NCBI GenBank assembly: GCA_045105515.1
Contig: JBGCDR010000181.1
Coordinates: 4,460 to 68,459, forward strand
Reading direction: 5' to 3'
Source: Oligoflexales bacterium
GTDB taxonomy: Bacteria > Bdellovibrionota_B > Oligoflexia > Oligoflexales > Bog-1112
DNA: 64,000 nucleotides
The first letter of the stretch is position 1. Each line of letters opens with the position of its first letter. Shown here piece by piece: positions 15,358-60,154 of the stretch. Both the position numbers and the translations under genes were made by a program. The notes below the pieces were generated by a model. It was not told where the DNA came from. It ran no database searches and saw nothing but the letters and a program-made list of their open reading frames with translations.

Positions 15358-15435
15358 TGGCGTCCCCAGGGGGATTTGAACCCCCGTCGCCGCCGTGAAA
15401 GGGCGGTGTCCTGGGCCAGGCTAGACGATAGGGAC
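15358..15435 (-). tRNA. tRNA-Glu (anticodon UUC), CCA encoded
   Basis: The reverse complement is GTCCCTATCGTCTAGCCTGGCCCAGGACACCGCCCTTTCACGGCGGCGACGGGGGTTCAAATCCCCCTGGGGACGCCA. It has a 7-bp acceptor stem (one G-U pair), the anticodon loop CTTTCAC, and a T-loop GGTTCAAATCC. The layout matches E. coli tRNA-Glu. Confidence 0.9.
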
Positions 15436-15447
15436 CTGGTAATCTCG

Positions 15448-15523
15448 TGGTGAGCCCACCTGGATTCGAACCAGGGACCCGCACATTAAAAGTGTGCTGC
15501 TCTGCCAGCTGAGCTATGAGCCC
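15448..15523 (-). tRNA. tRNA-Lys (anticodon UUU), CCA encoded
   Basis: The reverse complement is GGGCTCATAGCTCAGCTGGCAGAGCAGCACACTTTTAATGTGCGGGTCCCTGGTTCGAATCCAGGTGGGCTCACCA (76 nt). The anticodon stem is GCACA/TGTGC, the loop is CTTTTAA, and the T-loop is GGTTCGAATCC. Confidence 0.9.
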
Positions 15524-15544
15524 GTACCACTCGAGATGAAAGAG

Positions 15545-15573
15545 TTTGTACTGGTACTACGTTCGTATGTCAA
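15545..15573 (-). promoter_or_regulatory. Sigma70-type promoter candidate for the tRNA-Lys/tRNA-Glu pair
   Basis: The minus strand reads TTGACA-17 nt-TACAAA and ends about 20 nt upstream of the tRNA-Lys 5' end. Confidence 0.35.
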
Positions 15574-15799
15574 CGAAATATTTTCACCTCATCCGGCAAG
15601 GTGTCATTTTTCAATAAAAAGAAACTCTCCCTTTAAATCCTATTGGCCAGAGTGTATCTTAGAGCAGAAATTTCTCAGAAGATCCTATAGGATACGCTTA
15701 TGCCAATTGCAATTTTATCCTCCCTACCATAAACTTCGCCTGCTCCTAGACAATTCAGGGAGGCTTTTTTAAATAGGTTCTATCATTAAGGGCAAATTA

Positions 15800-16129
15800 A
15801 TGACCGTCGTAATTAAGAAATCCAAAAAATCTTCAACTGCTGATCTACGCTCTGCCATGACAAAGCTGATATATTTGTTAGAGGGACAAAAAGAGGACGA
15901 GGCTGTTGCAGATCTGCGTATTGCCCTATCGGATATAGAAAAGTACCAAGTAGAATCAGCAGAGTTCCAGGCGGGCTTAAAACTAATCATCGAAGCTTTC
16001 GAGGGTGAACACGAGTTAAATGCTTATACCTACAAGCGCGATAAAGAAGACCAATGGACAGAGGTGGAAGAACTATACTTGGCTAGCACCAGCGTTCTCA
16101 ACCTTGTTAGAAGGCTGTTTAAACAATAG
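15800..16129 (+). CDS. Hypothetical small acidic protein
   Basis: 109-aa ORF with an AAGGG RBS, 12 nt upstream of cls. No motif recognised. Confidence 0.5.
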   Translation: MTVVIKKSKKSSTADLRSAMTKLIYLLEGQKEDEAVADLRIALSDIEKYQVESAEFQAGLKLIIEAFEGEHELNAYTYKRDKEDQWTEVEELYLASTSVLNLVRRLFKQ

Positions 16130-16141
16130 GTCAACACTATA

Positions 16142-21732: not shown

Positions 21733-22836
21733 TCAAATTAGTAGTTTTAACTGCATCGTGTAGCGGCGTTCAGCAAGATCATCATGTGTACCTACCACAG
21801 GAGCATGGTCCACTGCGTAAGTAGCAAATCTCAAATTAAGTAAACCAACATCGAATTGAAATCCAGCGGTCAAATAGCCCTCTTTAAGGCCCGTTTGGAC
21901 TTTAATAATTTCCGAATACCCCCACTCAAGTCCCATATTAAGCTTATGAGAATAATGAACAGGTTGATTGATCATATGTGCATCAACAGCAGCAAGGACG
22001 TACATACGATCAGTTTTTATAGGTTTAATACTAAATCCAGTATTTACTGAAGGAAGCCTAGCTTCTGGAGCACCAATGGATGTACTTCCAACATCCATTT
22101 TCTCGTAAACAGTGCCTCCAACATCGGTAATACTAAGCCCAAAAGTAGGTTCCATGGTCTTAATGGGTGTGAACAGCATACCCACATCAGCACCTACACC
22201 CGAACCTCCTTCTACAAACCCCTCTAAATCTTCAGGATCAGTTAAAGCTGAAATGGTTTGGATCGTAAAATTCGCCTTTATACCACCTTTTGCAATAAGC
22301 TTTAGCGATCCCCCTATGCTTAGACGATCCTCAAGAAAATTCATTGCAAAAGATATTGGGGCCACAAGCCTTGGACCAGTTTCAAACTCAATATTTATAT
22401 TGCTATGGGCTACAAGTGAAAATGGTAGCGATAGACCGACCCCAAGACCAAAATGCTTAAATATCAGATGAGGAGTGAGGTACCCTGCCATATGATGAAT
22501 TTTGCCAGTTTGTGCTTGGAAAAGGTCAAGCACATCTGATGTTTGCTCGAAAGAGCCACTAGGAAGCTCTAGCAATTCATTGATAAAGTCGACGGTGCTC
22601 TTACCAATTTCAAGTGCCGGATTCAAAAATTCTCCATCCCACTCTTTTAGTCGAGCTAAGCCGGCTGGATTGTAAAATAAAGCGTTATAGTCATCTGCAA
22701 CAGCAACATAGGCATTCCCCATAGCCAAAGGACGCATGCCAAAGTGAGTCCATCGCAGCTCTTTTGCGACGAGAGCAGTGCTTGTAAAAAGCACGCAAAG
22801 ACAAATGAAATACCGCACAGTCTGCCTGCAATCCAT
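21733..22836 (-). CDS. Outer-membrane barrel protein (FadL/PorV-like N-terminal motif)
   Basis: I set the start at ATG 22836 (CAGGAG RBS 9 nt upstream; signal peptide MDCRQTVRYFICLCVLFTSTALVA). 'LAMGNAYVAVADDYNALFYNPAGLA' is typical of FadL/PorV-type barrels. Confidence 0.55.
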   Translation of the reverse strand: MDCRQTVRYFICLCVLFTSTALVAKELRWTHFGMRPLAMGNAYVAVADDYNALFYNPAGLARLKEWDGEFLNPALEIGKSTVDFINELLELPSGSFEQTSDVLDLFQAQTGKIHHMAGYLTPHLIFKHFGLGVGLSLPFSLVAHSNINIEFETGPRLVAPISFAMNFLEDRLSIGGSLKLIAKGGIKANFTIQTISALTDPEDLEGFVEGGSGVGADVGMLFTPIKTMEPTFGLSITDVGGTVYEKMDVGSTSIGAPEARLPSVNTGFSIKPIKTDRMYVLAAVDAHMINQPVHYSHKLNMGLEWGYSEIIKVQTGLKEGYLTAGFQFDVGLLNLRFATYAVDHAPVVGTHDDLAERRYTMQLKLLI

Positions 22837-23012
22837 TCTTGTAAGCTCCTGGGTTTGAAAGAAGTTCAAGCGAATCAATCTAACCAACTGCAAAAACACA
22901 TAATTACTATTGTTGAATTGACCTTCATTGTATCACACTCAGGATTGGAAAGACTAAGCTAAGGTGTATTGGCGTTACAATTCTTATGAAAAAAAGCTGG
23001 CGGCTCACAGCG

Positions 23013-23721: not shown

Positions 23722-24843
23722 ATGAGAAGAACTATGACTTTTGATGTAAGGGATAAGACTTTGGAGCAGGTCAATTCCATGGTACTAAAAGTCAGAACGA
23801 AGGAAGCCCTCAGTGAAGAGGAAATTAGTAATTTTTTAAACACCTTCGAAAGTTACGAATGTTGGACCCCTTATCTGATGTTGTTAAGCTCGAAGCTTGA
23901 CATATCTGATTCGCCCAATAAAAAAGATTACTATATTTCTTATATCAAGACCCAAAACATTCACTTAAAAAATTCATCTGGCGCCTTAAGCATGTGTAAG
24001 CGCATGATAAAGGATCTCAACCTGAGTTTTATGGAGTTTTGGTCTAAGGTGCTTCCAGAGATTTCCTTAAAACAAGACCATGAAAGTAAAGCTGCTTTTC
24101 TTAAAACTGCGTCAACCCAATTTAAGACGATACCCGAACAGGTGGCATGCCTAGAACACCTTGGCATGATCTATGACAAGAAGATCCACCTTGAGCATGA
24201 ATTACCAGATGTTTACGAAAAGATACTCGAACTGGATCCTAGCAATGTAAAAGCCCTTAAGTATTTTAAAGCGGTATTCACACAGACAGGTTCCTGGGAA
24301 GAAGTGGCTGGAGCATTAGGAAGACTATTGAAAGCTGTAAGCCACAAAAATGAGGAATACCGGGTTGCCCAAGAGTTGGCAGGAGTTTTTTTATACCAGC
24401 TTAACAACCCGCAAAAAGCTATCGACGTGTTAGAAAAGTACTGTGCACAGAGCCCACTGGACACTTCCACCATCCACTACGATGCTTATGCTAGCCTTCA
24501 GGATTGGTCCGGCTGCTTAAAGGTATTAAACCGCTGTATTTTAACCACTGAGGAAGATACGGTCCAAGCAACTCTTTACTACCGAATAGGCCAACTTCAC
24601 GCCCAGCTTGGCAATAATTCCGCAGCAGATTCCAGCCTACAAAAATCCCTAGAGCTTTGGCCACAATTTTTAGAGCCATTAGAGGAACTCATACACATTG
24701 CTGTCGATAAAAAAGATTGGCCTACTTTAAAAAAATACTTAGAAACTCTCGAAAATCTGATACAAGGGGAAGACCAAAAGCGAAAAGTTGCCTCCCTCAT
24801 TGACGTCATAAAAGGGTGCCTAGGGAATGAAAAAATCGAATGA
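23722..24843 (+). CDS. TPR-repeat protein
   Basis: 373 aa with TPR-like helical repeats (for example 'EKILELDPSNVKALKYFKAVFTQTGSWEEVAGAL' and 'YYRIGQLHAQLGNNSAADSSLQKSLELWPQ'). It starts 11 nt after the TetR stop. Confidence 0.6.
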   Translation: MRRTMTFDVRDKTLEQVNSMVLKVRTKEALSEEEISNFLNTFESYECWTPYLMLLSSKLDISDSPNKKDYYISYIKTQNIHLKNSSGALSMCKRMIKDLNLSFMEFWSKVLPEISLKQDHESKAAFLKTASTQFKTIPEQVACLEHLGMIYDKKIHLEHELPDVYEKILELDPSNVKALKYFKAVFTQTGSWEEVAGALGRLLKAVSHKNEEYRVAQELAGVFLYQLNNPQKAIDVLEKYCAQSPLDTSTIHYDAYASLQDWSGCLKVLNRCILTTEEDTVQATLYYRIGQLHAQLGNNSAADSSLQKSLELWPQFLEPLEELIHIAVDKKDWPTLKKYLETLENLIQGEDQKRKVASLIDVIKGCLGNEKIE

Positions 24844-25873
24844 TATATCCGTCTTAATGAAGTCCTACAAGATTCAATTCGAGCCTATCCCTTTTATTGC
24901 CCGTTCCCTAACCGAAAGTTTCCCAAAACGATTTAATACTAGCAAATTACTGATTAGTGGGCTTTATAAAGTAGTTGGCTCCACCCAAGTCAAATGCGAC
25001 CAGTACTTTATCAACGCTCCAGAACAGCGCCAAGCATTTAATGATTTAAGCCGTTTTGACCCAATCACTGAACTGATTCACATAGACTTTCTTCCTTTTA
25101 AACAGTTGCTAAAGCTACTGGAGACATGGAAACAGCCAACCTCACTTTCGATCTATGATCATCAAGATTACAAAATAGACAAACCTCTGTGTGAGCTAGC
25201 ACAAGCACTCCACGGAATTTATCCAAATTTGCAGTCCGATCTTGGGAAACGTTATCTTGACGAATCTTTGAACAGCGACCTTCTCAATAAGCATTTTCCA
25301 TATACTGATGATGCCTTAGTATTGCAAGAAAGACCGGGAAAAATGGTCATTTGGAACCCTCGAATGGCTTGCGAACAAGGATTCTCTCAAAAGTACAAAA
25401 ATGTATCGAGCGAACATGTACAAAAAAAATCGCTAATGAATGTTGGAAGAACTCAAGGTTTGGTGAGCATGATTGTTTGGGAAGGGCACGACCATCCGCA
25501 CACCGTACATAAGCAACTAAGCGCTATGTCTTATAGACTTGAAGACCATGGATTTGACCTTACAGCACCCGAAAAAATTACTGACAAGATTTGGGATTTT
25601 GCCAAATCGATCTTCGCAAACCAAGGTGATAGTAAAGTACATATCTACTTATCTTGTCCTTTTCAGACCATCACCAATGCTTTAATGCAGTCCTTTGGAA
25701 AAGTTTTATCTGGTAAACCACTTTCTTTCAAGGTTCATGATCTTATAACTGGATACAGCCCTAAGCTCTCATTTATGAGTTTTCTATCTTCAATTGAAGA
25801 AGCTGCTATTTTCGTAGATTTAAGTGATTTTCCAGAAGTCGTTTGCGTTGTTGGCCAAAATGAAGGGGGCTGA
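24827..25873 (+). CDS. Hypothetical protein
   Basis: 348-aa ORF whose start overlaps the TPR gene end by 17 nt. No motif recognised. Confidence 0.55.
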   Translation: MKKSNDISVLMKSYKIQFEPIPFIARSLTESFPKRFNTSKLLISGLYKVVGSTQVKCDQYFINAPEQRQAFNDLSRFDPITELIHIDFLPFKQLLKLLETWKQPTSLSIYDHQDYKIDKPLCELAQALHGIYPNLQSDLGKRYLDESLNSDLLNKHFPYTDDALVLQERPGKMVIWNPRMACEQGFSQKYKNVSSEHVQKKSLMNVGRTQGLVSMIVWEGHDHPHTVHKQLSAMSYRLEDHGFDLTAPEKITDKIWDFAKSIFANQGDSKVHIYLSCPFQTITNALMQSFGKVLSGKPLSFKVHDLITGYSPKLSFMSFLSSIEEAAIFVDLSDFPEVVCVVGQNEGG

Positions 25874-25875: not shown

Positions 25876-27723
25876 TTGGAAAGCTATATTAAAGATGATA
25901 TCGGGTTCATAAATATCGAACCTCACGCTGACCTAATCAGCGAAAAAGGTTTTGAATATCTTAAAAATCTTAGATCCGAACTCCTAGAGTTCTCTAAGCA
26001 AAAGTTAAGCACTATTTTTTTCATCCAGCTGGAAAAAGTAGAAGATAATTTGGAGTGCTGGGAAAAAAAAACAAGAAACGATCTTTTGCTACATGATTTA
26101 TACAAAAAAATTCTATTTCTTAGATCAGTTCTTTATTTTATTCATAACAGCGCACAACAATTTATCTATATAGGTGGAGATAGCTGTCTTGGATCTTTTT
26201 GGGAACTAGCTTTATGCTGCGATAAACGTATGTGGTTTGCGGCTGATGGCACTGTAGGATTCCCCGAAATAGATCTAGGATTTTCTCCATTAGGGGGAAG
26301 TCTAGAACATCTTGCCGAGGAATCCTCTAGAACCAAGGATCAATGGTTTGAGCAATCTACCTTGACTCTTACTAGAGCAAAAGAAAAAGGTTTTATAGAT
26401 TTTTTAGGTGGCTCAACGTTTCATCCCGAGTACGCTATTAATTGGGTCAAAGAGAATTCGCAGGGATCAAGTAATAGAAAAGTACAACCGGAAACTAACT
26501 TTAAGCCACTTGAGTGGGACAAAATCCAGGAACTAGAAAAACAATGGTTAGCTATTAAACGGATCACAAACTTATCTCAGTCATGGGAATATGCCTGGAG
26601 TCTCAATAAATCAAAACGCTGGTTCAAAACTTCACAGGAATACGAAAATTTAATCTCTTTTGTCTTAGGTAGATTCATTCTCGCTCCTTCATTAAAAAGG
26701 CTTGCAACAAAAGTAGATATTGGCAAATTTCAGGCTGAACATATTGATCATAAGGTTGTATATATAGATAGTGAACTGTGGGCACCACCACTCGAAATCT
26801 TTGGCTACCTTCTAATGAATCAATATAGGATCGTATTCTTTGGTGAAAATCCAAAAGTTTTAGCTTCGCTACTTGAACGTATGTTTCTTAAATTAGATCG
26901 ATTGGAAGATAAACAGCTTTTAAAAAAACTCTGGTCAAAATATGTCAGTTGGTTTCATGGAAACAAAATCGGTCCAAAATCTATCGCAATTAGATGGAAC
27001 ATCGGTGATACCATTGAGATCTTTTTCAACAACAGAACATTTCATTTCCTCAATTTAGAAAGTAACCTTTTTGATGCCAAAAAAGGTTATATGGAAAGAG
27101 TAGCTCCTAGTACTGATCAAATTGAAGAAAAAAGAGTAGAGGACCTAGTCAATAAAATAAGTTTTGGAGTTATTAAAGAAAAGATTATAGGCAAAGATAC
27201 TCCTATCAGCAGTTGGATTAGATTAATGATCCTCCAAGAGATCATTAAATTAGCAAACAATTTTGAAGGTGAAATTGACAAACTCTTATCTAGTCTGAAT
27301 CAAAAAGGATGGAGGTTTGCAGGATCTGAAGAAAGATGGGGTCATTTTCTTCAGACCAGGAGAGGAAGTATTTATCCAGACAAAGGAGTTTGCTTTCCGG
27401 GCAAGGATATTTGGAACCTTGGAAGGTGGAAGCAAGTTTATACCCTTCTCCAACCAAAGAAAAAATCCTCTAGATATTGGAACCCTGCAGAAATGGAAGT
27501 TCACTTAAGCCTATACTTACTTGCACTTAGTGAGTACTTATGTAGAAAAAATTTCTTTCAACATGAAAAACAATCTTTATTACTACTTAGCGAAGCAATT
27601 GGCTTTCCCCGAGGCTTAGGAAACCCAAAGGACTATATGCTGTGCTGGGGAAGAAGAAGGTACAACTTATATAAGAATCGATTTTGGCCTTACTTAGAGA
27701 ACACAAAAGGAATCAGCCAATGA
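25876..27723 (+). CDS. FadB/FadJ-like protein: crotonase-fold N-domain plus degenerate 3-hydroxyacyl-CoA-dehydrogenase-like region
   Basis: TTG start preceded by GAAGGGGG. The crotonase signature is 'GGDSCLGSFWELALCCDKRMWFAADGTVGFPEIDLGFSPLGGSLEHL'. Where the Rossmann GxGxxG is expected I read 'VVYIDSELWAPP'. The C-terminal 'SEAIGFPRGLGNPKDYM' resembles the FadB C-domain. Confidence 0.55.
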   Translation: MESYIKDDIGFINIEPHADLISEKGFEYLKNLRSELLEFSKQKLSTIFFIQLEKVEDNLECWEKKTRNDLLLHDLYKKILFLRSVLYFIHNSAQQFIYIGGDSCLGSFWELALCCDKRMWFAADGTVGFPEIDLGFSPLGGSLEHLAEESSRTKDQWFEQSTLTLTRAKEKGFIDFLGGSTFHPEYAINWVKENSQGSSNRKVQPETNFKPLEWDKIQELEKQWLAIKRITNLSQSWEYAWSLNKSKRWFKTSQEYENLISFVLGRFILAPSLKRLATKVDIGKFQAEHIDHKVVYIDSELWAPPLEIFGYLLMNQYRIVFFGENPKVLASLLERMFLKLDRLEDKQLLKKLWSKYVSWFHGNKIGPKSIAIRWNIGDTIEIFFNNRTFHFLNLESNLFDAKKGYMERVAPSTDQIEEKRVEDLVNKISFGVIKEKIIGKDTPISSWIRLMILQEIIKLANNFEGEIDKLLSSLNQKGWRFAGSEERWGHFLQTRRGSIYPDKGVCFPGKDIWNLGRWKQVYTLLQPKKKSSRYWNPAEMEVHLSLYLLALSEYLCRKNFFQHEKQSLLLLSEAIGFPRGLGNPKDYMLCWGRRRYNLYKNRFWPYLENTKGISQ

Positions 27724-32919: not shown

Positions 32920-34071
32920 CTATTCCGGTGCAGTACCAACATCTGGTTTCAATCCTTGTTTTATGAAGGTCGTTCTATTCAAACGATTAGAGGGTGAGCT
33001 CGATTTAACAGTTGCCATATAACCACTTAGAAGAGCTACCAAGAGCGAAAAAAGCCCTACTAAGAGAAAAGCGTTATGCCATACCGCACCAAGAAGGAAG
33101 AGTCCAAACGTAGCAATTCCGCAAACAATAGCGTTGATCAAAAGCTTATCTTTTTTGACTATGGACATTTCGCCTTTTAAAATGCCTCCCGCATAGCCTT
33201 CAAGCATCACATTTTTTTCCCTGGCTTTATGGAAATGTTTAAGCACACTCGCAGGTTGGTATATATACCTAGCATGCCAAAATGGAAGGTGAATCAGTTG
33301 GATACCAGCTATTTCTAATTCACTCCTTGTATCGACCAAAATTTCAACATTCAGTTTTGCCAGAGCATGGTGGTAGTTTGTCACGTGATTACGGGCCCTC
33401 CGTAAGGCCTCTTCCTCTGATACTTGAATAGTTAATATTGGCAGGCCATTAGCATACTTAAACTCGAAAAATTCGCGAACATCATAGGCGGAAAGCTCAT
33501 CATCACCTGATTTTGAGGTCTTTATACCTAGGCTAGGATCAATCCTACCTCTTGAAAAAGTAGAATCTAAAGGAAAACCATCCCAGTCAACTTCAAGCTG
33601 CTCCTTAGGTTCGTGAAGATGAGTCATTCCCCAATTTTCGCAAAGATTTTTACGGGCTGAAATAGCCCAACGATAGTTTCTCCTAAACTGGCCTTCTTCC
33701 ATAATATAGTTAGCGCCTAATCCGTGATCTAAGGCAGATTTTTGGCGTTTTACTAGGCCTTTCCACATGGTATGGGCTTCAAGGGACACAATCCAGAATG
33801 GGATGGAAAAACCATTAATATCAGTAATAAAGTATTCTTTGTCTACATTCTCAGCATGGTGATGAAGGCGTTTGATCCACTCGGTAAAAATTGCCTTTAC
33901 TTGCCTTTGATCGCAAGAATTAGGAACAATATAGTGATCTGAATATATTTCCTTTTTCCCGGTTTCCATGGATATTCTAAAGGTTACCGAACAAAAGGGG
34001 CACATAAGGAGCTTATCCATCAGGTCATATTGGGAAGGTGCATTACAGCTCGGACAGGCTAACTCATGCAT
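32920..34071 (-). CDS. Zinc-ribbon protein with two C-terminal transmembrane helices, unknown function
   Basis: I set the start at 'MHELACPSCNAP...CPFCSVTF' (a CxxC...CxxC ribbon); the track ORF extends to 34197. The C-terminal hydrophobic segments are 'LLINAIVCGIATFGLFLLGAVW' and 'FLLVGLFSLLVALLSGYM'. Confidence 0.5.
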   Translation of the reverse strand: MHELACPSCNAPSQYDLMDKLLMCPFCSVTFRISMETGKKEIYSDHYIVPNSCDQRQVKAIFTEWIKRLHHHAENVDKEYFITDINGFSIPFWIVSLEAHTMWKGLVKRQKSALDHGLGANYIMEEGQFRRNYRWAISARKNLCENWGMTHLHEPKEQLEVDWDGFPLDSTFSRGRIDPSLGIKTSKSGDDELSAYDVREFFEFKYANGLPILTIQVSEEEALRRARNHVTNYHHALAKLNVEILVDTRSELEIAGIQLIHLPFWHARYIYQPASVLKHFHKAREKNVMLEGYAGGILKGEMSIVKKDKLLINAIVCGIATFGLFLLGAVWHNAFLLVGLFSLLVALLSGYMATVKSSSPSNRLNRTTFIKQGLKPDVGTAPE

Positions 34072-34275
34072 AGGCCGAATCTCCTTAGGGTGTGGTCCAC
34101 AAGATAATTTTAGCACGCATAGAGTTGACAAGACACGGATCGGCATTAGTTTGTGGTTATCAGGCAGGCAGGACTGCAGAAGACAGATTTCTTGCAAGCC
34201 CTAAAAGCTATAACTAAATGATTTTACTAAATTATTTTATATTCAAATAACTCACTCATAGAATGGAGAGAAGGC

Positions 34276-41004: not shown

Positions 41005-42288
41005 ATGAAGATTTTTTTTATTTTTTTGGTTTTTATGCTAAGTGCTTGCACGATCTTTATTGGCAAAAGGCAATCATTGTGGACCGAGTTAGACAAAACC
41101 GAAACAGTTTCCTGTGAGAGCATATCCCCCCCACTCAATCACATTGGACTTATGGATGTGATGCTGATCAAAGATAGAAACAGTTCTTCTTTTCTTTTAA
41201 AATCAAAATCTCGTTTAAATGAAAACAAATTTTTCACCTATAAAATCCCAACAGATGGGAGTATTAATGAAGAGCTCTTCGTACCCGTAAGTTTAAACCC
41301 AGAGTCTGAGTGGGCAGGCTCTGGAAAGGGTATATGGGGAATGTATGAAAGTACCCTAGAAAATGAAGCACAAAACAAGACCGAGAAGGTACATCTCAAA
41401 CTTTATTCCGTTAGCAATAATAGGAAATCTGCTAAGAAATTAGCACCAATTACTCTTAATAGCAATCCTGACAAGATTTTTCTCAAAGAAAGTAGACAGG
41501 GACTTTGGTTGGTAGATCAAAAAGATTCGAAATTTAATCTACACAATCTTGAATTAGAGACAAATACTGAAAAATATTCAACCCTAAAAATGCAAACAAG
41601 TTTCTATGCTAAGCCAAGTCCTTTCACAATCAGATCCGAGGATAATGAATATGCTATTTTTCTAGAAGAAACAGGGGGTGACCTCATTGCTGAGGAAGCT
41701 GAAGAAGGAGAAATCAACATAGAAGAGTATTTAGAGGCTGATGACTTAACAACTCCATCCATAAACCTGGAAACAAATCCAATCACCAATACCTTCAAAC
41801 TTCAAGCTCTCAACTCCCAGGATGCAACAACGCTCGAGTTACCCACCAAACAAGGTATAGAAAATTGGAGTATCCATCCTCATAACTCTGGTTTTTACCT
41901 AGCGTACCTTGAAGGGGATTCTTTGATTGGACAAGCGAAACTACATATAGCAAATTATCTAATCTCCAATAGTAAACAAGAGCTGGTTTGGTTCAAAACC
42001 TTTCCTATGAACCATATTCATGTTGGAGATATTGAATGGATAGACCTCAAAAACGGTAAAGTCCAGCTTCATTTTCTTAAATGGTTAGATGGAGAGGCCA
42101 CCTTGGCTTCTTTTAACCTTGCGCAGACCGAGGTTAATCCTATAGAAAATAAAGGTGTCTTTCCAAGTGGAAGTACCTTGATGGGAGTTTTTGCTCCCAA
42201 AACGGATAACGATTTATACTATGCCCTGATTCGTTACAGTAGTGGAGCCTTTTGGCAATTTGACGTATGTCAGCTATACAATGACTGA
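41005..42288 (+). CDS. Hypothetical lipoprotein
   Basis: 427 aa. The signal peptide plus lipobox is 'MKIFFIFLVFMLSAC'. No family recognised. Confidence 0.55.
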   Translation: MKIFFIFLVFMLSACTIFIGKRQSLWTELDKTETVSCESISPPLNHIGLMDVMLIKDRNSSSFLLKSKSRLNENKFFTYKIPTDGSINEELFVPVSLNPESEWAGSGKGIWGMYESTLENEAQNKTEKVHLKLYSVSNNRKSAKKLAPITLNSNPDKIFLKESRQGLWLVDQKDSKFNLHNLELETNTEKYSTLKMQTSFYAKPSPFTIRSEDNEYAIFLEETGGDLIAEEAEEGEINIEEYLEADDLTTPSINLETNPITNTFKLQALNSQDATTLELPTKQGIENWSIHPHNSGFYLAYLEGDSLIGQAKLHIANYLISNSKQELVWFKTFPMNHIHVGDIEWIDLKNGKVQLHFLKWLDGEATLASFNLAQTEVNPIENKGVFPSGSTLMGVFAPKTDNDLYYALIRYSSGAFWQFDVCQLYND

Positions 42289-45631: not shown

Positions 45632-46561
45632 ATGCCACATCCCCTCAGTAGAAGAATGGCAGTAAGAATGATTCCATTTGGATTGGTAATTGGGACATGT
45701 ACAGTCCTTCTCCAATGTTTAAACAATAAGAAAAAGAAAAACGATCAAACAGGCGAAGAACTTGAAGAAGGATCAGGTACACCTACCTTCGAACAAGAAA
45801 ACCCTAAAGAAGAGTTAAAAAAAGAAGACTCCAGTAACAAGCAAAAAGACAATACACCGAATGTTTTCCAAACTACGAAGCCAAATTGTATTGATGGATC
45901 AAACCAAATTGCAATAGATAAAGTACAAGATGCAGAAGAAGCCTTTGATCCGATCATAAAACTATTCGGGCTCGAAAGTAATGCGATGATAGTAATCGCC
46001 CTGCCTAAATACCAGCATAGTAACTTGAAGGATATTTTTTTGCTAACCAATACGGGGACACTACTAGCTCATAAAGGTATTGGCCAACTCAGTGATATTG
46101 ATGTAGATAAGACCTTAAAACCCGTCGTATTTGACAACATATTCATTGGAAACCATCGACGATTTGCACTTCTTTATCAGACTATAGACAACTTGTATTC
46201 AAAACATGTCCTGGGAAAATCCATTCAGTTTGAAACAAATTTTAATGGAAAGAAAGTCTATGGGCTCACTCCAGTGTCAGTACCAACTCAAGACTATTTC
46301 AAATCATATATTAACAACATTGTAGAGCCAATCAAAGAACAGTTTGATTATCAGCAGGATCAAAATATCCCTATTTTTGCAGGCCTTGATACCAAATTCC
46401 ATCCTTTAACCTTAGATAAGAATAGCCTAATTACTGACCTAATTGGCACGAGCTTGAATACCACAAATGGAGAATTCAAGGATTTCGGTCGGCATAATAT
46501 GTTTATTCATTACAAATTGGTTGAAGACTTTTATTTAAGAACCATAATCAAGATTGTGTGA
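45632..46561 (+). CDS. Hypothetical exported protein (possible lipoprotein) with Lys/Glu-rich linker
   Basis: 309 aa. N-terminal 'RMIPFGLVIGTCTVLLQC' is followed by a low-complexity KKKKNDQTGEELEEG... linker. Confidence 0.5.
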   Translation: MPHPLSRRMAVRMIPFGLVIGTCTVLLQCLNNKKKKNDQTGEELEEGSGTPTFEQENPKEELKKEDSSNKQKDNTPNVFQTTKPNCIDGSNQIAIDKVQDAEEAFDPIIKLFGLESNAMIVIALPKYQHSNLKDIFLLTNTGTLLAHKGIGQLSDIDVDKTLKPVVFDNIFIGNHRRFALLYQTIDNLYSKHVLGKSIQFETNFNGKKVYGLTPVSVPTQDYFKSYINNIVEPIKEQFDYQQDQNIPIFAGLDTKFHPLTLDKNSLITDLIGTSLNTTNGEFKDFGRHNMFIHYKLVEDFYLRTIIKIV

Positions 46562-46569
46562 GTTTCTCT

Positions 46570-47535
46570 ATGCCTTCAATATGTAATAGAATTGTATTAG
46601 ATCGAAGAAAATTTGTATCCTTAGGATCAATGCTAAGTATTTCAAATTATGTTGCGATTATTGACAAGCTATTTGCAGACAATCATTGCACTAAAATTGA
46701 CATAAAAAATGATCTATCACCAATTGGTATATTTGATGAATCAATTTTTTATTGGATCGATGGAATGCGACCTGGCTCCAGTTCGAATATTGCCTTTTAT
46801 ATCCATCTAAAGCAAACAAATGAGGAATACGTTGAGAGGGTAGTATTGACCAGTGCGGAAAAAAAAACCCTCGGAGCAAGATACTATGACCCAAAAGCTG
46901 CAAACTCAAAAGGCTTTGCTCCCTATATGATCTTCAATCAAATTGATCTGAAGTTTAGTAAAAAAATATTCTTGGTGGTACAAGTAAAAACCGGCAACAG
47001 TATAAAAATTTACCGCTATACTCTCGATACTACAAAACTATCGCAAAGTAAGCTTCACATGGAGAAGCTTCCCCTCGAACTAATGAGCGACTTTAAGGAT
47101 AAACATGCGGGGCAGTGTTACTCCAGCTATCACTTTCAAGTCAAAGCTGTGCGAGAACAAATTTGCAATAATCTAGGATTAACAATGCCATGTTTTAATT
47201 CTCTTTTTCCTACACCAAAAATAAAATCTATTTCAGAAAACTCGCAATTTAGCTTGGATGTATTAAATCGCTACCCAGATATTAGTTCAGAGAACTACAT
47301 GCGCTACTTTTTTCTAACTGACCCTGTTGGTCGGCACTTGGCAATCCATAAGAGAAATTATCAGGACAATTATTCCGAACTTATCCCTCTATTTACCTTG
47401 TCGAGTGACTTCTGGAAATCAAGATGGGGTGTCGTAGCCGAAATGGTGCCCAGAATTAATGACTGCCCATACCTTTTATTATTTTCAGAAAACCCTAAGT
47501 ATGGGATTTTTTACAGCCATATTTGGCTTCGTTAA
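46570..47535 (+). CDS. Hypothetical protein with Tat-like N-terminal motif
   Basis: The N-terminus is 'MPSICNRIVLDRRKFVSLGSMLSISNYVAIIDKLFA' (RRxF followed by a hydrophobic stretch). The alternative GTG start at 46558 overlaps the upstream stop. Confidence 0.5.
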   Translation: MPSICNRIVLDRRKFVSLGSMLSISNYVAIIDKLFADNHCTKIDIKNDLSPIGIFDESIFYWIDGMRPGSSSNIAFYIHLKQTNEEYVERVVLTSAEKKTLGARYYDPKAANSKGFAPYMIFNQIDLKFSKKIFLVVQVKTGNSIKIYRYTLDTTKLSQSKLHMEKLPLELMSDFKDKHAGQCYSSYHFQVKAVREQICNNLGLTMPCFNSLFPTPKIKSISENSQFSLDVLNRYPDISSENYMRYFFLTDPVGRHLAIHKRNYQDNYSELIPLFTLSSDFWKSRWGVVAEMVPRINDCPYLLLFSENPKYGIFYSHIWLR

Positions 47536-53488: not shown

Positions 53489-55048
53489 TTATTTCTTACG
53501 ATTACGCTTACGACTATTTTTTGCCGCTCGCCTCGCCTTTTTGACTTTATCTTTGTCTACCCGTTTTAAGGCAGGAGAGCCTCCAGGCAAGTGAGCTCCA
53601 GCTCCTTCCATACCACCCATCATACTCGCAAGGCTACCCATATCAGGCATCCCTCCACCGGTAGCCATTTTTCGCATTTGGTTCATTTGAGATAGCTTAT
53701 TCATTCCAGGGATTTTCCCCATCAAGCCACCCATGTTTTTTCCTAGGTTGCCCATCATTGAGTGCATGGTCTTAAAGCGCTTAACTAGTTCGCTCACTTC
53801 CTTAGCACTACGACCGCTTCCCATTGCTATTCGCTTAGCACGGCTCTGGCTCTGATAAAGTAGGTTCGGATTGAGGCGCTCTTTTTCAGTCATAGAGTCA
53901 ATCATAGCTTTGATACGACCTAGCTCTTTTTCATCCACATTAACATCTTTAGGAATCATGTTTTGCATGGGGAGCTTTGCCATGATGTCTTTGAGAGGTC
54001 CCATTTTTTGAATCATGGAGATCTGCTCATAAAAGTCCCTGAAATTGAACTGGCCACTCAACATGCGCATAGCTTCTTCTTCGCTATCCCCGTCAGCAAC
54101 CCTTTCAAAGTCCTCCATCAAGCCAACAATATCACCCAAGCCAAGAATTCGGCTTGCTAACCCTTCAGGTCTGAATTCTTCAAGTCTCTCAAGGTCCTCT
54201 CCTATTCCAAGAAACTTAATAGGAGCACCAGTTACTTCTTTTATACTTAAGGCAGCACCACCCCTGGCATCGCCATCGAGCTTAGTCATCACGACACCAC
54301 TCAAGTCGAGCCGTTCGTGAAAAGCTTTAGCAGTTGTGACAGCATCTTGCCCCATCATTGCATCGCAAACGAGGAGGATATTGTCGGGGTGACATTCAGA
54401 TTTGATATCAGAAAGCTCATCCATCAACTTGTCATCAATGGTAAGTCGGCCTGCAGTATCGAAGAGTAATGTATCGCAGTCAAGCTCCATTGCTTTTTGC
54501 TTGGCTTTAACACAGATTTCTACTGGAGAGGTGTTTTCCAAATGAAATACTGGGACATCAATCCGTTCACCAAGAACTTTTAACTGGTTAACCGCTGCAG
54601 GTCGGTAAATATCAGCAGCTACCAGCAAAGGCTTCCTCTTATTGCGAATCAAATACTTTGCCAGCTTACCAGTAGTGGTGGTTTTTCCTGTTCCTTGCAA
54701 TCCAACCATCATAATGGAGGCTGGACGGTTATTCGGAAGACTCAAACTAGTATCAACAGGGCCCATCAAGCCCTCTAGCTCTTCCTTACAGATTTTTATG
54801 AAATGATCACCTGGGCTTACCTTTAACTTATCGCCACCTTTCCCTGCCTTTAGAGAAACAACTTCCCCTAAAGACTTCTCTTTAACACGAGAAAGGAAGA
54901 TTTTTGCAACTGAATACTCCACATCAGCTTCTAGAAGACTTCGGCGAATATCACCCATTGCCTCGTTGATATTGTCTTCCGATAACTTTGTTTTTCCTTG
55001 AAACTTTTCTGTAGCTTTTTTGAATCCATTACTGAGGACGTCAAGCAT
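53489..55048 (-). CDS. ffh: Signal recognition particle protein Ffh
   Basis: 'MMVGLQGTGKTTTTGKLA', 'DTAGR', 'TKLDGDARGGAALS', a Met-rich M domain, and a basic tail. Confidence 0.95.
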   Translation of the reverse strand: MLDVLSNGFKKATEKFQGKTKLSEDNINEAMGDIRRSLLEADVEYSVAKIFLSRVKEKSLGEVVSLKAGKGGDKLKVSPGDHFIKICKEELEGLMGPVDTSLSLPNNRPASIMMVGLQGTGKTTTTGKLAKYLIRNKRKPLLVAADIYRPAAVNQLKVLGERIDVPVFHLENTSPVEICVKAKQKAMELDCDTLLFDTAGRLTIDDKLMDELSDIKSECHPDNILLVCDAMMGQDAVTTAKAFHERLDLSGVVMTKLDGDARGGAALSIKEVTGAPIKFLGIGEDLERLEEFRPEGLASRILGLGDIVGLMEDFERVADGDSEEEAMRMLSGQFNFRDFYEQISMIQKMGPLKDIMAKLPMQNMIPKDVNVDEKELGRIKAMIDSMTEKERLNPNLLYQSQSRAKRIAMGSGRSAKEVSELVKRFKTMHSMMGNLGKNMGGLMGKIPGMNKLSQMNQMRKMATGGGMPDMGSLASMMGGMEGAGAHLPGGSPALKRVDKDKVKKARRAAKNSRKRNRKK

Positions 55049-55200: not shown

Positions 55201-56691
55201 TTACCAGGTCTTAATTTGGGGCCGAGGCCGCCTATTAGACCAAGCAAAAGCACCTTTGCTTTGATCTTTCAGCTTTAAAGGGGCCCATCTCTTAGAGCTT
55301 GGAGGAAGGTTTACAATAGTATAATTGTACGTTCCCATAGGAAGATGAAGGACTTTATATCGGCCATTATCAACAACAAAAGAGGTTTCCCCGATTATGC
55401 CTTCATAAAGATATGAGGTATGGGATAGGTTATCCATATCTCCCTCATCACGCAGATAACACCGAATTGGGCGGTTGCCACTGAGTAGCATCAGTGAAGC
55501 TAGACTTAAGCTAAGGTTGTCATCATGATAGAGTGGATTCCAACAACTAGTGCTAGCCCTTAAAGGCAACTCTAACAACTGTAACTTTTCCCGTTCTCCA
55601 AGCACGCTGAATGGGTTCATGCTTATTGCCGTCTTTAGAACCTGACTAGCCACATCCTGATCCGGCTGAATTTGAACCCATAGCTCTTTTGTTCGGTGAA
55701 GAGTTCGAGGAATATGAACCCTTAGCTGACCTAAGCGGTTTGATTTATCAAGAAGTTTCTGAAAAAAACTCAACTCCCGAGTTGCCTGCTCAATCCCAAT
55801 TTCTCCCCAACGAAAACTATCTGCTGATGAACTTTGGCATAAGCCTTTTTGCCAAATTTTGGACCTCATCACAAGCGGCAGCTCCTTAGCATGTGATAAG
55901 GAAAGCAAGGAGCAGAATTGCTCCATTTCATCAAACTGGGAACGGTTAAGCAATAACTGGGCAAGCTGTTTTGTTATGGTAAGTCTTCTCAGAAATAGAT
56001 AGGGCTGTCTCTTCCACTTTCGCAAAATATGTTTTTGCATCTTTTTCAAACGACTAATTGCAGAACCAGCATCTAGAGATGCCAGCTCACAAACAAACCC
56101 CTCACCGGCAAGTTCTCTAATCTTACAATCTGGAGCCATTTCTTCCAAAAGCTGTGTCAACACTTCTCGAAATCCAGTTATAAGTTTATGGTTCGGACTT
56201 TTTTGACACAAAAAAGTCCTCAAGGTTGAAACCTGCTCTTTATTAGCAGGAATCCAAAATTTATTTTCACCTTCATTAAAATCTACTTCAAACAGTGATT
56301 CCGAGCTTGTCTCCAAAGGCCCTAAAATCCTAACGTATTTGATCTCGTGCTTCGGTTTTAAAATTAATGGTAAAGTCAGTGAAATAGGGAGGGTTTGTAG
56401 GGAGCACCAAGTACGAGGCAAAGGGATTACACTGTAACCTCCATCCTGAGCAAAAGCAGGATGGACATTGATCTGTGCTTCCAACTGACTAAGCTTGGGA
56501 GAATCATTAACCTCAGCCTTAATCTCTATTTTCTGATTTTCTGATGTAGATGAAATTTTTTGGACCCTGAGCTTATTAGATAAAAGCACAGGCTCTCTCT
56601 GAGTAGCAGTACAAGCACCCAAGAAAGTGACGAATACCATCAGTAATTTAAAAAATTGCGATTTCCTGAACAGCAAGATCAACTTTTTCAT
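55201..56691 (-). CDS. Hypothetical lipoprotein
   Basis: 496 aa. The signal peptide plus lipobox is 'MKKLILLFRKSQFFKLLMVFVTFLGAC'. Its start overlaps the upstream ORF end by 44 nt. Confidence 0.55.
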   Translation of the reverse strand: MKKLILLFRKSQFFKLLMVFVTFLGACTATQREPVLLSNKLRVQKISSTSENQKIEIKAEVNDSPKLSQLEAQINVHPAFAQDGGYSVIPLPRTWCSLQTLPISLTLPLILKPKHEIKYVRILGPLETSSESLFEVDFNEGENKFWIPANKEQVSTLRTFLCQKSPNHKLITGFREVLTQLLEEMAPDCKIRELAGEGFVCELASLDAGSAISRLKKMQKHILRKWKRQPYLFLRRLTITKQLAQLLLNRSQFDEMEQFCSLLSLSHAKELPLVMRSKIWQKGLCQSSSADSFRWGEIGIEQATRELSFFQKLLDKSNRLGQLRVHIPRTLHRTKELWVQIQPDQDVASQVLKTAISMNPFSVLGEREKLQLLELPLRASTSCWNPLYHDDNLSLSLASLMLLSGNRPIRCYLRDEGDMDNLSHTSYLYEGIIGETSFVVDNGRYKVLHLPMGTYNYTIVNLPPSSKRWAPLKLKDQSKGAFAWSNRRPRPQIKTW

Positions 56692-57133
56692 AAAAACCGC
56701 CTATTGCAGGGCCAGCAGCTTCCACTGTCCATGACAAAGGCTTGCATAGTTTAAGAATATACCGGGACACTTCTTGCCCATCTTCTGTTTTCATAATAAG
56801 GCGGATATCGGTCAGACTCGCTCTGGTTTCTGAAGCTTTTTTTGCCCATAGATATAAAGAAGGATCTGTAACAAAGTCTCTCTTCAAACTCACGCGCGTG
56901 AAAGTTTCATCAGCACTTTGTCGCTGAGAAGTGAGGTCTCTAAGATCGTTGATATGGTCAAAGGTTCCATAGTCAAGACCATCAATCTCTATGTGAGTTT
57001 TAGTTTGAAGAGGCGTAAATTTTGCCGACACACCACTTGTGAGTGAAAAAGCCAAACCTAAAGTAAAGACTACAACCCCAAGCACTGCAAGAACCCAAGA
57101 AACGCTCCTTAAACTTTTGTTTTCTCTATGCAC
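56648..57133 (-). CDS. Membrane-anchored protein with phage-tail-tube-like (T4 gp19 / TIGR02241-type) domain
   Basis: 161 aa with a GTG start. The N-terminal transmembrane segment is 'SVSWVLAVLGVVVFTLGLAFSL'. After it come 'THIEIDGLDYGTF', 'FTRVSLKRDFVTDPSLYLWAKK', 'DIRLIMKTEDGQEVSRYILKLCKPLSWTVEAAG' and 'EKVDLAVQEIAI'. These follow the tail-tube family pattern (..idG...f.evsGL / nvtLkRG...d..l.dW / i.lld..g.ev.rw.l..awP.kw..p / iE.lel.he) as I remember it. Confidence 0.5.
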   Translation of the reverse strand: MHRENKSLRSVSWVLAVLGVVVFTLGLAFSLTSGVSAKFTPLQTKTHIEIDGLDYGTFDHINDLRDLTSQRQSADETFTRVSLKRDFVTDPSLYLWAKKASETRASLTDIRLIMKTEDGQEVSRYILKLCKPLSWTVEAAGPAIGGFYEKVDLAVQEIAIF

Positions 57134-57413
57134 TACCTGTTGCCTACTTTCTAATAAATATTGCCTTATTAACTAAAGAATACCACATACACTACAAGCA
57201 ATCCAACACCACACAGCAGAACGGAATCATCTATATGTATGGGACGCTCTTTTCCACATGGCCTACGCATCGGTAAAAGTAACACAAGCTTTACCGGGGA
57301 AAGGCCTCCCAGATTTCACATAGTATTATAATAAGCTAAAAAAATAAAAAGAATTCACCAGATTTCAGCCACTACCAAACTAAATTTTAGCAGACATTGG
57401 CTTTGGCTTTGCA

Positions 57414-58358
57414 CTAGGATTCTAAAGATTCTTTGATCAAATCTTTCAACTCTTGTCTATGTTGACTAGGAAATTCTCGATCAGCAAGAAGAGAGTCTGC
57501 CTGACGCCTAAAGGCTTCTTTTTGATCCATAGCTAAATGAGCTTGGGCAGCATGGGCCTTGAGCTTCCATGGGATATTGGAAAAAGATTTCTCTGCTTCC
57601 CAGACAATAGGAGGAATTCTGTCATAATCACCAGCTACCCCAAGGGCTCCTGTGTACTCTACCAAGAAAGTGGCCTCTCGTTCGCCTGATTGGTAAAAGG
57701 GTTCAAGATAGGAAGCCTTAGACTGCTGATTGCTCTGTTCATCTAAATCCGCGACAAGCGATTTTCCAGCCCATGAATGTAGGTCATCCGCTCGAGCCCA
57801 TAGCTCAGCAACATGATCTTGCTCTGCTTCTGATAAATAAGTATAGAAAAGCTCCCAGAGTGGGAAATGATTAGGACAAGCTTTTAAGCCTGCTTTGATC
57901 CACGCAACAGACTCCTCCCATCTCTTGTCGTGATGCATAATCTGAACTACGTTTACATAGGGAGCGGGCTCACTGGGATGCAACTTGTGAGCATCAAAAA
58001 AACAAAGCTCAGCACGGCTTAGCTCACCGCAGTACATGGCAGCCAATCCCTCGATATAAAGACCTCGAAAATCTCTTCGTGACCATTGTTGAAGGTTGAG
58101 GTCAACAAGCTTAAGTACAAGGATTGAAAGATCCATGCCCAGGAGTTCATCCATCAGATCAACCATACTTTTTTCATCTGTAACTTGATGGTCTTTCATG
58201 TAAGCCAACAAGTAATCAACGAAATCTGTTTTCAGTTCCGCGACCACAACATCAGTCTTAAACCCTGAATATTCTGACTTAGAAATTCCTAGCCACTGAC
58301 GCAGTTTTGGCCCCATCGGATAGTGATTCCAAGAGTTTTTTTCTGAGGGATTCATCAA
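57414..58358 (-). CDS. Hypothetical helical (TPR-like) protein, translationally coupled to aspS
   Basis: 314-aa ORF whose ATG overlaps the aspS stop (ATGA). Confidence 0.5.
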
Positions 58359-60154
58359 TCCTCCTGTTTTGGGTCAGCAAGCAAAATCCCTAAGTCATCA
58401 AGTGAAGGCTTAGGTACCGGAGATGGAGCCTCTGTCATTAAACAGCTCGCTTTTTGAGTTTTTGGAAAAGCGATCACATCTCTGATTGCATCACAGCCTG
58501 TTAACAGCATTACAAGTCGGTCTAGTCCGAAAGCAATACCACCATGAGGAGGGGCACCAAATTTAAGCGCTTCCAATAAAAATCCAAACTTTTTCTCGGC
58601 TTCTTCCGGGGTCATACCTATTGTTGCAAACACCTTAGCCTGAATCTCAGGTTTGTGTATTCTGATCGAACCGCCCGCAATTTCATAGCCATTACACACA
58701 AGATCATATGCTGCAGCACGCACCTTCTGTGGTGCCGTGTCAAGCAAATGGAGGTCTTCTTCCCTAGGCATACAAAAAGGGTGATGTCGTGCTGACCATT
58801 TACCTGTAGTCTCATCCTGTTCCATCAAGGGAAACTCAGTAACCCAAAGAAAATTTAAGGTTTCCTTGTTAAACAGTTGCAGTTCTGTACCCAAATGATT
58901 TCTAAGAGCGGATAAACTAGCCTTTACAGTTTCATACTTGCCAGCACCGAACAAGACCAGATCATTAGGCTCGAGTCCAATTTTAGTTTCGAAGCTTTGA
59001 ACAAATTCATCATTAAAGAACTTGCTTATAGGCGACTGCCAGCTAGCTATCCCAGTCCCTGTTTTTTTCTTTAGCCAAGCCAAGCCATTTGAGCCATGAT
59101 GTTTGGCAAGCTCAGTAAGCTCATCAATTTTCTTTCGAGAATAGGTTTCCGCAGCATTCTTAACAACTATGGCATTAACAATTCCTCCGGTACTGACAGC
59201 ATCCCTGAATACTTTGAATTCACAACCCTCAGCCAATGTCGTAAGATCGTTCAGCTTCAAATCAAAACGAGTATCTGGCTTATCACAACCGTATTCTTCC
59301 ATTGCTTGTGCATAGGTCATATGAGGAATCTCTGCAACGACCTCTTCCTGAAAGAACTCATTAACGAGTTCTTTAGTCAAGGCTGTAACCGTTGCTATAA
59401 CCTCAGATTCATCTACAAAAGACATCTCACAATCAATCTGTGTGAACTCAGGCTGCCGGTCTGCACGCAAGTCCTCATCACGAAAGCACTTAACAATCTG
59501 GTAATACCTATCAAAACCACTGATCATATATATTTGTTTGAAGAGCTGAGGGCTCTGCGGCAAGGCGTAAAACTTGTTTACATTGATCCGCGAGGGCACT
59601 AAGAATTCTCTAGCTCCTTCTGGTGTAGATTTGTAAAGGTATGGGGTTTCTAAATCAAGAAAACCAAACCCTTCAAGCCCCCTCCTAGCAAGCGAAGTTA
59701 TTTTGCTTCTTGCAACAATACGCTCTTTCATTACTTGTCGGCGCAAATCCAAATATCGGTATTTAAGTCTAAGATGTTCAGATGCTTCAGACTTTTCTGT
59801 TACTACAAAAGGTAAGACCTCGCATTTGTTATCAATGCGAAGTTCATCCAATTGTACTTCTATGGCACCCGTAATCATATCATCATTGATCATGCCTTCT
59901 GGTCTGCCACAGACTTTTCCTTTAATTGATAAAACAAACTCACTTTTTATGTCTTTTGCTTTGTCCACTAATTCAGGATTTTTGGCTGGATCTAAGACAA
60001 CTTGGGTAATACCAAATCGATCACGCAAATCAATAAAGACCAAGCCCCCTAAGTCTCGACGTTTCGCAACCCAACCCATAAGGATAACTTCAATTCCTTT
60101 ATGTTCTCCCCTGAGTTCACCACAAGTATGACTTCTTTTCCAAACGCTATCCAA
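58355..60154 (-). CDS. aspS: Aspartate--tRNA ligase
   Basis: The N-terminus is OB-fold-like. The class II motifs are '[18 protein letters not shown]', 'GGSIRIH' and '[17 protein letters not shown]'. Confidence 0.95.

Follow-up and report, generated by a model that had tools for sequence, protein, structure and literature searches.

A pair of overlapping genes in a 64,000-nucleotide stretch of an Oligoflexales genome (contig JBGCDR010000181.1; the whole stretch is called the window here) is best read as a two-gene envelope module derived from a contractile-tail tube protein. The first gene encodes a 161-residue protein in which a tube fold follows an N-terminal export signal, and the second encodes a 496-residue lipoprotein. 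On balance, and with a little better than even confidence, we take the small protein to be a tube-fold protein that was domesticated and is exported to join its lipoprotein in an envelope complex, the two forming a module that is specific to Oligoflexales-type bacteria and is not a phage tail or injection system in working order. An earlier note on this DNA had described the 161-residue open reading frame (ORF) with a GTG start and a 44-nucleotide overlap with the 496-residue ORF, and the ORF calls reproduced these features and placed both ORFs on the minus strand. The elements of the pair are as follows.

56648..57133, minus strand: gene of the 161-residue tube-fold protein (precursor), GTG start, from the ORF call
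57023..57133, minus strand: predicted export signal, codons 1-37 (basic n-region, then the hydrophobic core, then a c-region that ends in ...GVSA)
56651..57022, minus strand: predicted mature tube-fold domain, residues 38-161 (~124 residues), from the secondary structure of the model
56648..56691, minus strand: 44-nucleotide dual-coding overlap of the tube-like gene and the lipoprotein gene
56697..56701, minus strand: Shine-Dalgarno-like GGCGG for the lipoprotein gene, in the codons of the invariant Gly145-Gly146
56689-56691, minus strand: ATG of the lipoprotein gene, in the Tyr148 codon and the first base of the Glu149 codon
55201..56691, minus strand: gene of the 496-residue partner lipoprotein, ATG start, from the ORF call

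Tube fold of the 161-residue protein

The earlier note had likened the 161-residue protein to the contractile-tail tube proteins, and both profile and structure searches agreed with this. PF06841 (Phage_T4_gp19) was the only Pfam family matched by the protein (E=4.7e-6), with residues 72-138 aligned to positions 44-112 of the 134-position profile. When the family members were scanned singly, 84 of 86 matched PF06841 at E<=0.01 (best E=1.2e-9). A large protein database contained 113 homologs at E<=3e-28, nearly all of 145 to 170 residues. The best homolog, with 93% identity, comes from an Oligoflexales metagenome-assembled genome (MAG) and carries the GenBank label 'phage tail protein'. A search of PHROGs with the 161-residue protein returned no match.

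An AlphaFold2 model was built from an 86-sequence alignment and had a mean predicted local distance difference test score (pLDDT) of 86.9. The model consists of beta1 (residues 44-50), beta2 (53-62), a variable loop (63-78), beta3 (79-86), a helix (93-102), beta4 (108-116), a long beta5 (121-139) and beta6/7 (147-160). When the model was compared with the PDB using Foldseek, each of the top 50 matches was a tube or Hcp protein, and 19 of these matches had E<=1e-3. Among extracellular contractile injection systems (eCIS), the matches included AlgoCIS (7aeb_Y, E=6.5e-6), the antifeeding prophage AFP (6rao_F), the Streptomyces contractile injection system (CIS; 9gts) and the Photorhabdus virulence cassette PVC (6j0n and 9qgl). 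The other matches included type VI secretion system (T6SS) Hcp proteins (8gra, 6bdc and 5xhh) and the tubes of phages 812 and A-1(L). Since PF06841 is matched and the fold search returns tube and Hcp proteins at its top, the tube-like pattern is more than chance. The relation to tube proteins is thus remote in sequence and clear in fold, and with respect to PF06841 the family is borderline and divergent, not a clean member.

The alignments to the Pfam profile and to the AlgoCIS tube chain 7adz_1a (a weak match in which profile positions 69-131 fall on tube residues 48-111) imply that, relative to canonical tubes, the N-terminal third of the mature domain is short by ~10-15 residues. These residues are missing from the segment between beta2 and beta3 (residues 63-78), where both conservation and model confidence are lowest. 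In canonical tubes, the beta2-beta3 region bears a protruding hairpin or loop that contacts neighboring rings. The short, variable and lower-confidence segment of the model hints at an altered ring stacking.

Anatomy of the N-terminal segment

The N-terminal segment had been described as a transmembrane helix that anchors the protein in the membrane. The hydrophobic segment is indeed present, but across 86 homologs it is built like a Sec signal peptide of the cleavable kind. All 52 loci have the segment in frame behind basic residues, irrespective of which start codon is used, and every homolog translates it, which answers the concern that the GTG start might be wrong and the segment not translated.

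We judged the signal anatomy manually on the 86-homolog alignment, using the n-, h- and c-regions and the residues at positions -3 and -1. The n-region had a net positive charge in nearly all homologs. The longest uncharged stretch was most often 14 residues (28 sequences; median, 16), and in 59 of the 86 homologs the uncharged core was followed by a 5-residue polar c-region starting with Lys or Arg. Position -1 was Ala in every homolog, while the remainder of the segment was unconserved in sequence; position -3 was Ser in 46, Leu in 24, Val in 7, Ala in 7 and Ile in 2. Under the von Heijne -3/-1 rule, an invariant small residue at -1 and a small or aliphatic residue at -3 in an otherwise variable segment are the signature of signal peptidase I. 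A core of 14 residues is insufficient for a stable transmembrane helix. The hallmarks of a Sec/signal peptidase I signal (a basic n-region, an h-region ~7-15 residues long, and positions -3 and -1 occupied by small neutral residues) were found across the family, with the window protein's own h-region being long. Because of the 14-residue core, the polar c-region and the invariant Ala at -1, cleavage by signal peptidase I and a soluble exported protein appear probable. The predicted site lies after Ala37, which would make Lys38 the first mature residue. As judged from the alignment, a Sec signal peptide that is cleaved off is therefore a likelier identity for the N-terminal segment than a membrane anchor.

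It was also considered that the signal anchor may stay uncleaved and, as a single transmembrane helix, hold the tube-fold domain on the periplasmic side of the inner membrane, where it would act with the lipoprotein. We regard this as unlikely, although part of the family fits it. The uncharged stretch of the window protein and its closest relatives has 24 to 28 residues, enough to span a membrane, and AlphaFold models residues 7-34 as a single helix. In the window protein itself the stretch is 28 residues long and runs into ...TSGVSA, and in about one-quarter of the family it extends to the Ala, so for those members an uncleaved signal anchor is possible. Residues that are less usual for signal peptidase I also occur, with Pro at -2 in 28 and Leu at -3 in 24 of the 86 homologs. 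On the other hand, the 14-residue core and the Lys- or Arg-led c-region that prevail in the family do not suit an anchor, and a -1 position that is always Ala, together with a -3 position that is always Ser, Leu, Val, Ala or Ile, is predicted by signal peptidase I recognition and not by a transmembrane helix.

Overlap of the two genes

Within the overlap, the tube-like gene has its last 14 codons and its stop codon, and the lipoprotein gene has its first 15 codons, which encode the basic n-region MKKLILLFRKSQFFK. Of the partner, the overlap encodes only this n-region of the signal peptide. Counted back from the tube-gene stop, 43 of 49 loci have an ATG of the partner frame at exactly 44 nucleotides. 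The remaining six loci (L006/L007, L033, L037, L038 and L049) have ACG at that position; the partner frame is open in five of them, and in the sixth (L038) the partner is in a different frame. In these loci the partner must start elsewhere; in L006, a GTG 53 nucleotides before the tube-gene stop is a possible alternative start. The fixed 44-nucleotide overlap is thus usual, not obligatory.

The codon of residue 148 (xAT; Tyr in the window, His in most relatives) supplies the AT of the partner ATG, and the invariant Glu149 codon supplies the G with its first base. The codons of Gly145 and Gly146 give GGnGG 5 to 7 bases before the ATG, which is the position of a Shine-Dalgarno sequence. The context ggnggnttyc/tATGa is conserved across loci, and Gly145, Gly146 and Glu149 are invariant. 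From this arrangement we infer that GGCGG acts as the ribosome-binding site of the partner, and the conserved G-G-F-H/Y-E tail would thereby double as the partner's translation start signal. The overlap would then be an example of dual coding in which an invariant protein motif is also the ribosome-binding site and start codon of the next gene. Compared with the relative whose tube-like protein is 93% identical, only 1 of 45 nucleotides of the overlap differs, whereas synonymous sites elsewhere are saturated.

The partner lipoprotein

The 496-residue protein had been called a lipoprotein, and its sequence bears this out: it has a lipobox (LGAC, with Cys27) of the form [LVI][ASTVI][GAS]C, and the lipobox Cys is kept in 73 of 80 homologs, the other seven being truncated gene calls. 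The residue at lipobox position -1 was Ser, Ala or Gly in 60 of 68 sequences, and Asp at position +2, which is an inner-membrane retention signal in E. coli, was found in only two sequences of the partner alignment. Six further Cys residues are invariant (80/80), and two more are present in at least 74 of the 80 homologs (at least 92%). The even number of these residues (8) is as expected of a disulfide-bonded protein outside the cytoplasm. The partner is most likely a disulfide-rich lipoprotein located in the outer membrane.

Across the family the partner has roughly 410 to 560 residues. The window's partner has a variable N-terminal region (~30-140) and a conserved core (~170-496), which holds the 8 conserved Cys residues and a C-terminal beta-sandwich (437-484). 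Its AlphaFold2 model is confident (pLDDT 85.5; predicted TM-score, 0.82) and contains a beta domain at the N-terminus, a helical core of some length and the C-terminal beta-sandwich. An exhaustive HMMER search of 1.84 billion representative proteins returned 198 clusters, all of the partner family, and when the large protein database was queried with a profile made from diverse partner sequences, only the same five close relatives came back. No match to the partner was found in Pfam, NCBIfam, PHROGs, PADLOC or the PDB-sequence profile search, and Foldseek found no significant match among PDB structures (best E=0.086, TM-score 0.11) or BFVD viral structures (best E=0.11). With these results and no Pfam family across 23 homologs, a phage-tail origin of the partner is unsupported. 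A Pfam match to a pPIWI-associated nuclease (E=0.0025, over 30 residues) appeared in 1 of the 23 homologs and was taken as chance, and PADLOC gave nothing meaningful for an anti-phage defense role.

Constraint on the two genes

We compared the nonsynonymous (dN) and synonymous (dS) divergence of the window and its closest relative. The tube-like gene had a dN/dS of 0.024 and a dN of 0.036, and ffh had a dN/dS of 0.019 and the same dN. The dN of aspS (0.093) was above that of the tube-like gene, and that of the partner (0.179) was ~5 times as high. The protein identities show the same difference: the partner is 73% identical where the tube-like protein is 93% identical, and 22 to 33% identical where the latter is 40 to 59% identical. 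The earlier note's idea that a tube fold was domesticated for the envelope is the best reading, supported by the fold itself, by the low dN/dS, by the coupling to the lipoprotein and by the lack of viral members and of tail genes described below.

The unequal rates could also point to a tube-fold protein that is a periplasmic chaperone or carrier for the lipoprotein or another client and not a structural element itself. A slowly evolving small protein with a faster partner, translationally coupled at a fixed overlap, is consistent with this, as is the presence of Hcp rings among the closest folds (8gra, 6bdc and 5xhh; target-normalized TM-scores of up to 0.66-0.76), since Hcp rings hold T6SS effectors in their lumen. 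However, the modeled 496-residue multidomain partner appears far larger than an Hcp lumen could hold, and a chaperone of this kind would be a sub-case of the envelope complex rather than a true alternative to it. We consider it rather improbable.

Distribution and gene neighborhood

Scanning one genome per species, we found the tube-like gene in 45 species. All hits were from Oligoflexales or Oligoflexia-type MAGs, labeled Oligoflexales, Pseudobdellovibrionaceae, Pseudobacteriovorax, Oligoflexus or with looser names, and all carriers were uncultured. Wherever a locus extends far enough, the gene immediately downstream of the tube-like gene is a partner homolog. The invariant core of the locus is the tube-like gene and its partner. 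In many loci, but not all, the order aspS, 314-residue gene, (ridA), tube-like gene, partner, ..., ffh, miaB recurs, and the neighbors across related loci are aspS, ridA, ffh, miaB and genes of the Nuo or Nqr complexes.

No tail genes were found beside the pair within +/-6-10 kb in the 45 genomes. In the window, 30 ORFs (29 of at least 300 residues, and GrpE) were scanned against Pfam, and no sheath, baseplate or spike family was among them. The scanned ORFs included CNNM, ScpB, a TLC transporter, PLD, RecN, PyrF, LpxC, ComEC, DnaK, UbiA, a cytochrome, FliG, Tgt, arginase and GrpE, and several had no match. Both the reported absence of sheath, baseplate and spike genes from the window and the proposed comparison of synteny in relatives thus came out in the same direction, with the tube-like gene and the lipoprotein gene adjacent wherever the locus extends far enough, housekeeping neighbors and no injection genes in the 45 related loci.

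These neighborhoods bear on the possibility that the gene is a displaced paralog of a tube gene from an eCIS or T6SS elsewhere in the genome and supplies subunits to that machine. The PF06841 match and the eCIS tubes as nearest structural neighbors would fit such an origin, and eCIS loci occur in related phyla, for example in Myxococcota MAGs (PMC11937823). Yet in the 45 genomes, within +/-6-10 kb, the lipoprotein is always paired with the tube-like gene and tail genes never are, the inter-ring hairpin region is shortened and variable, and the tube-like family always has an export signal, which the known cytoplasmic tubes do not. We regard a displaced paralog as very improbable.

No member of the tube-like family was found in 2.9 million viral contigs, and a tblastn search of 50,697 phage genomes with the mature domain gave nothing better than E=3. 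Although the 93%-identical ortholog is named as a phage tail protein, the reading of the gene as a decaying prophage or tailocin remnant without current function has next to no probability left and is effectively refuted by the selection and synteny data: constraint is like that of ffh at near-saturated synonymous sites, orthologs of 38 to 59% identity keep the same neighbors in 45 species, and the family is absent from the viral contigs and phage genomes.

Model for the pair

In the proposed model, the 161-residue precursor would be exported by the Sec pathway, the signal peptide would be cut after the invariant Ala37, and the mature tube-fold domain of ~124 residues would be freed into the periplasm. 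Ribosomes would start on the partner within the last 44 nucleotides of the tube gene, using the ribosome-binding site and start codon in the G-G-F-H/Y-E tail, and the product of the downstream gene would be a disulfide-rich lipoprotein, most likely in the outer membrane. Made together, the two proteins would most likely form one envelope complex, in which the tube-fold protein is probably an Hcp-like ring or a small adaptor bound to the lipoprotein. Of this model, the analysis shows the fold, the anatomy of the export signal, the lipobox and Cys pattern, the fixed pairing and overlap, the strong purifying selection and the lack of neighboring tail genes; cleavage of the signal peptide, the outer-membrane location, the contact of the two proteins and the oligomeric state are inferred.

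Besides the long uncharged stretches and the less usual residues at -2 and -3 described above, other results weigh against this model. Of the profile checks proposed earlier, PF06841 was positive, but its score of 26.9 bits is below the gathering score of 28.2, and TIGR02241 was weak (18.5 bits, E=1.3e-3; cut-off, 62.4). The sequence-profile search of PDB chains found no significant tube match (7adz_1a, E=0.72). It is only the linkage of the genes that points to contact between the tube-fold protein and the lipoprotein, and the one contact test tried, covariation of Cys130 with the partner cysteines, was negative. A disulfide between Cys130, the single conserved Cys of the tube protein, and the partner was rejected, since Cys130 is replaced by Ser or Ala throughout the L040-L050 clade, where all nine partner cysteines are kept.

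Taking these points together, we rank the Hcp-like ring or adaptor with its lipoprotein first, the inner-membrane anchor second and the displaced injection subunit a distant third, with the relic effectively excluded. A more specific and rather doubtful version is that the Sec-exported tube-fold subunits form a periplasmic ring or short tube that is anchored or capped by the lipoprotein at the outer membrane. If true, this ring or tube would add a new kind of structure to the envelope, for example a conduit, scaffold or plug, with a phage tail part as its evolutionary source and neither sheath nor baseplate, and a constraint matching that of SRP54 would suggest a near-essential role in these bacteria.

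Neighboring genes and other observations

The pair had been placed among housekeeping genes. This holds for the flanking ffh and aspS, whereas a 314-residue gene between the tube-like gene and aspS had gone unmentioned. A miaB-like gene also lies downstream of the pair, besides ffh.

53489-55048: ffh, downstream of the pair
57414..58358, minus strand: gene of a conserved 314-residue protein, weak tetratricopeptide repeat (TPR) matches, its start overlapping the aspS end by 4 nucleotides
58355-60154: aspS, upstream of the pair, beyond the 314-residue gene

The 314-residue protein looks cytoplasmic and has a conserved N-terminal YPMGPKLR motif. The Pfam scan found no family above threshold for it, and the TPR matches were sub-threshold only. 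Its gene adjoins aspS in most related loci (33 to 48% identity) and resembles an uncharacterized aspS-coupled gene. It is missing upstream of the pair in several loci, L009, L011, L012, L026, L027 and L040-L048 among them. Since it is frequent but not constant upstream of the pair, the 314-residue gene is probably outside the core module.

In the window (57134-57413) and in its closest relative, a 280-nucleotide non-coding gap separates the 314-residue gene from the tube-like gene. Many relatives have a ridA (L-PSP) gene in this interval, for example at 9463-9846 in L004 and at 9474-9854 in L006. A ridA relic in the gap was rejected, the sole trace being a 9-residue tblastn match (E=0.85), and no Rfam match to a known RNA element was found there. 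Promoter and terminator scans gave fewer sites than in shuffled controls, none of them usefully placed. In L006, a 1549-residue ORF without a Pfam match (11884-16533, minus strand) directly follows the partner on the opposite strand; it is not present in the window.

Elsewhere in the window, a full-length TLC-type ATP/ADP translocase is encoded at 12054-13592 on the plus strand (PF03219, E=1.4e-167). TLC ATP/ADP translocases are nucleotide importers that characterize bacteria with an obligate intracellular life, Rickettsia and Chlamydia among them, and the presence of one in an Oligoflexales genome hints at a host-dependent or predatory lifestyle. Nine ORFs of 309 to 615 residues had no Pfam family at E<=1e-5, an unusually high share of large genes that resist annotation for 64 kb that are otherwise filled with housekeeping genes.

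3018-4775, minus strand: ORF without Pfam family
19387-20910, minus strand: ORF without Pfam family
21733-22899, minus strand: ORF without Pfam family
24827-25873, plus strand: ORF without Pfam family
25876-27723, plus strand: ORF without Pfam family
32920-34197, minus strand: ORF without Pfam family
41005-42288, plus strand: ORF without Pfam family
45632-46561, plus strand: ORF without Pfam family
46558-47535, plus strand: ORF without Pfam family

Comparison with known systems

The tubes of eCIS and contractile phages (AlgoCIS Alg1, AFP Afp1/Afp5, PVC Pvc1/Pvc5 and T4 gp19) have the beta-sandwich-plus-helix fold in common with the 161-residue protein. They also share with it the N-terminal motif 'hIEIDG..yG.F..i.GL' and the motif '.vsLkRdf..d..L..W', as the earlier note had pointed out. 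In contrast to these tubes, the 161-residue protein bears an export signal of the Sec type and is tied to a lipoprotein partner, with no sheath, baseplate or spike genes nearby, and it is ~10-15 residues shorter in the beta2-beta3 region, where canonical tubes have their hairpin. It falls short of both the Pfam and the TIGR02241 cut-off, and its family occurs in a single bacterial lineage and was not found in viruses. The one paper found on gp19-like genes in predatory bacteria deals with ordinary sheath-linked eCIS tubes of Myxococcota (PMC11937823).

A tube subunit of a contractile injection system would be expected next to tail genes and in the cytoplasm without an export signal. Neither was found: the window and the related loci have no tail-gene neighborhood, and all 86 homologs carry an n-h-c signal. 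Because the PF06841 and TIGR02241 thresholds are not reached and neither the tail-gene neighborhood nor the cytoplasmic location is found, we class the 161-residue protein as a divergent, lineage-specific offshoot of the tube fold and not as a tube subunit.

Hcp (TssD) of the T6SS has the same fold and gave the matches with the lowest root mean square deviation (8gra_B, 2.7 A; 9vne, ~3 A). Short Hcps of ~120-130 residues, including those of Bacteroidota, are similar in size to the mature domain of the 161-residue protein, and the Hcp ring has client proteins that it binds, so the tube-fold protein may work in an analogous way. The 161-residue protein had no Pfam match to Hcp (PF05638) at E<=1, and no T6SS genes were found in the window. 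Hcp lacks a signal peptide, is produced in the cytoplasm and is driven out of the cell when the sheath contracts, whereas the 161-residue protein has its own Sec signal.

The pair also resembles coupled pairs of a periplasmic protein and an outer-membrane lipoprotein, in which a small exported protein and a lipoprotein are likewise co-transcribed from overlapping frames. Unlike in such pairs, the partner here has no relative in Pfam, NCBIfam, PHROGs, PADLOC, the PDB or BFVD. Our literature search found no report of a coupled pair of this kind that uses a tube-fold protein, nor of a Sec-exported or periplasmic tube-fold protein. To our knowledge, all tail-tube and Hcp-fold proteins described so far are built in the cytoplasm and work inside a contractile or phage-tail machine.

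The Oligoflexales, among which are predators and host-associated bacteria, are poorly known as a group, and the pair defines two uncharacterized families specific to them, one of which, the partner, has no detectable relative in the libraries searched. An exported tube-fold family with a fixed lipoprotein partner, no tail genes and conservation at the level of housekeeping genes would clearly exemplify how a structural fold of phages can be given a new role in the cell envelope, and, compared with Hcp and the tail tubes, it would show a second route for the tube fold out of the cytoplasm.

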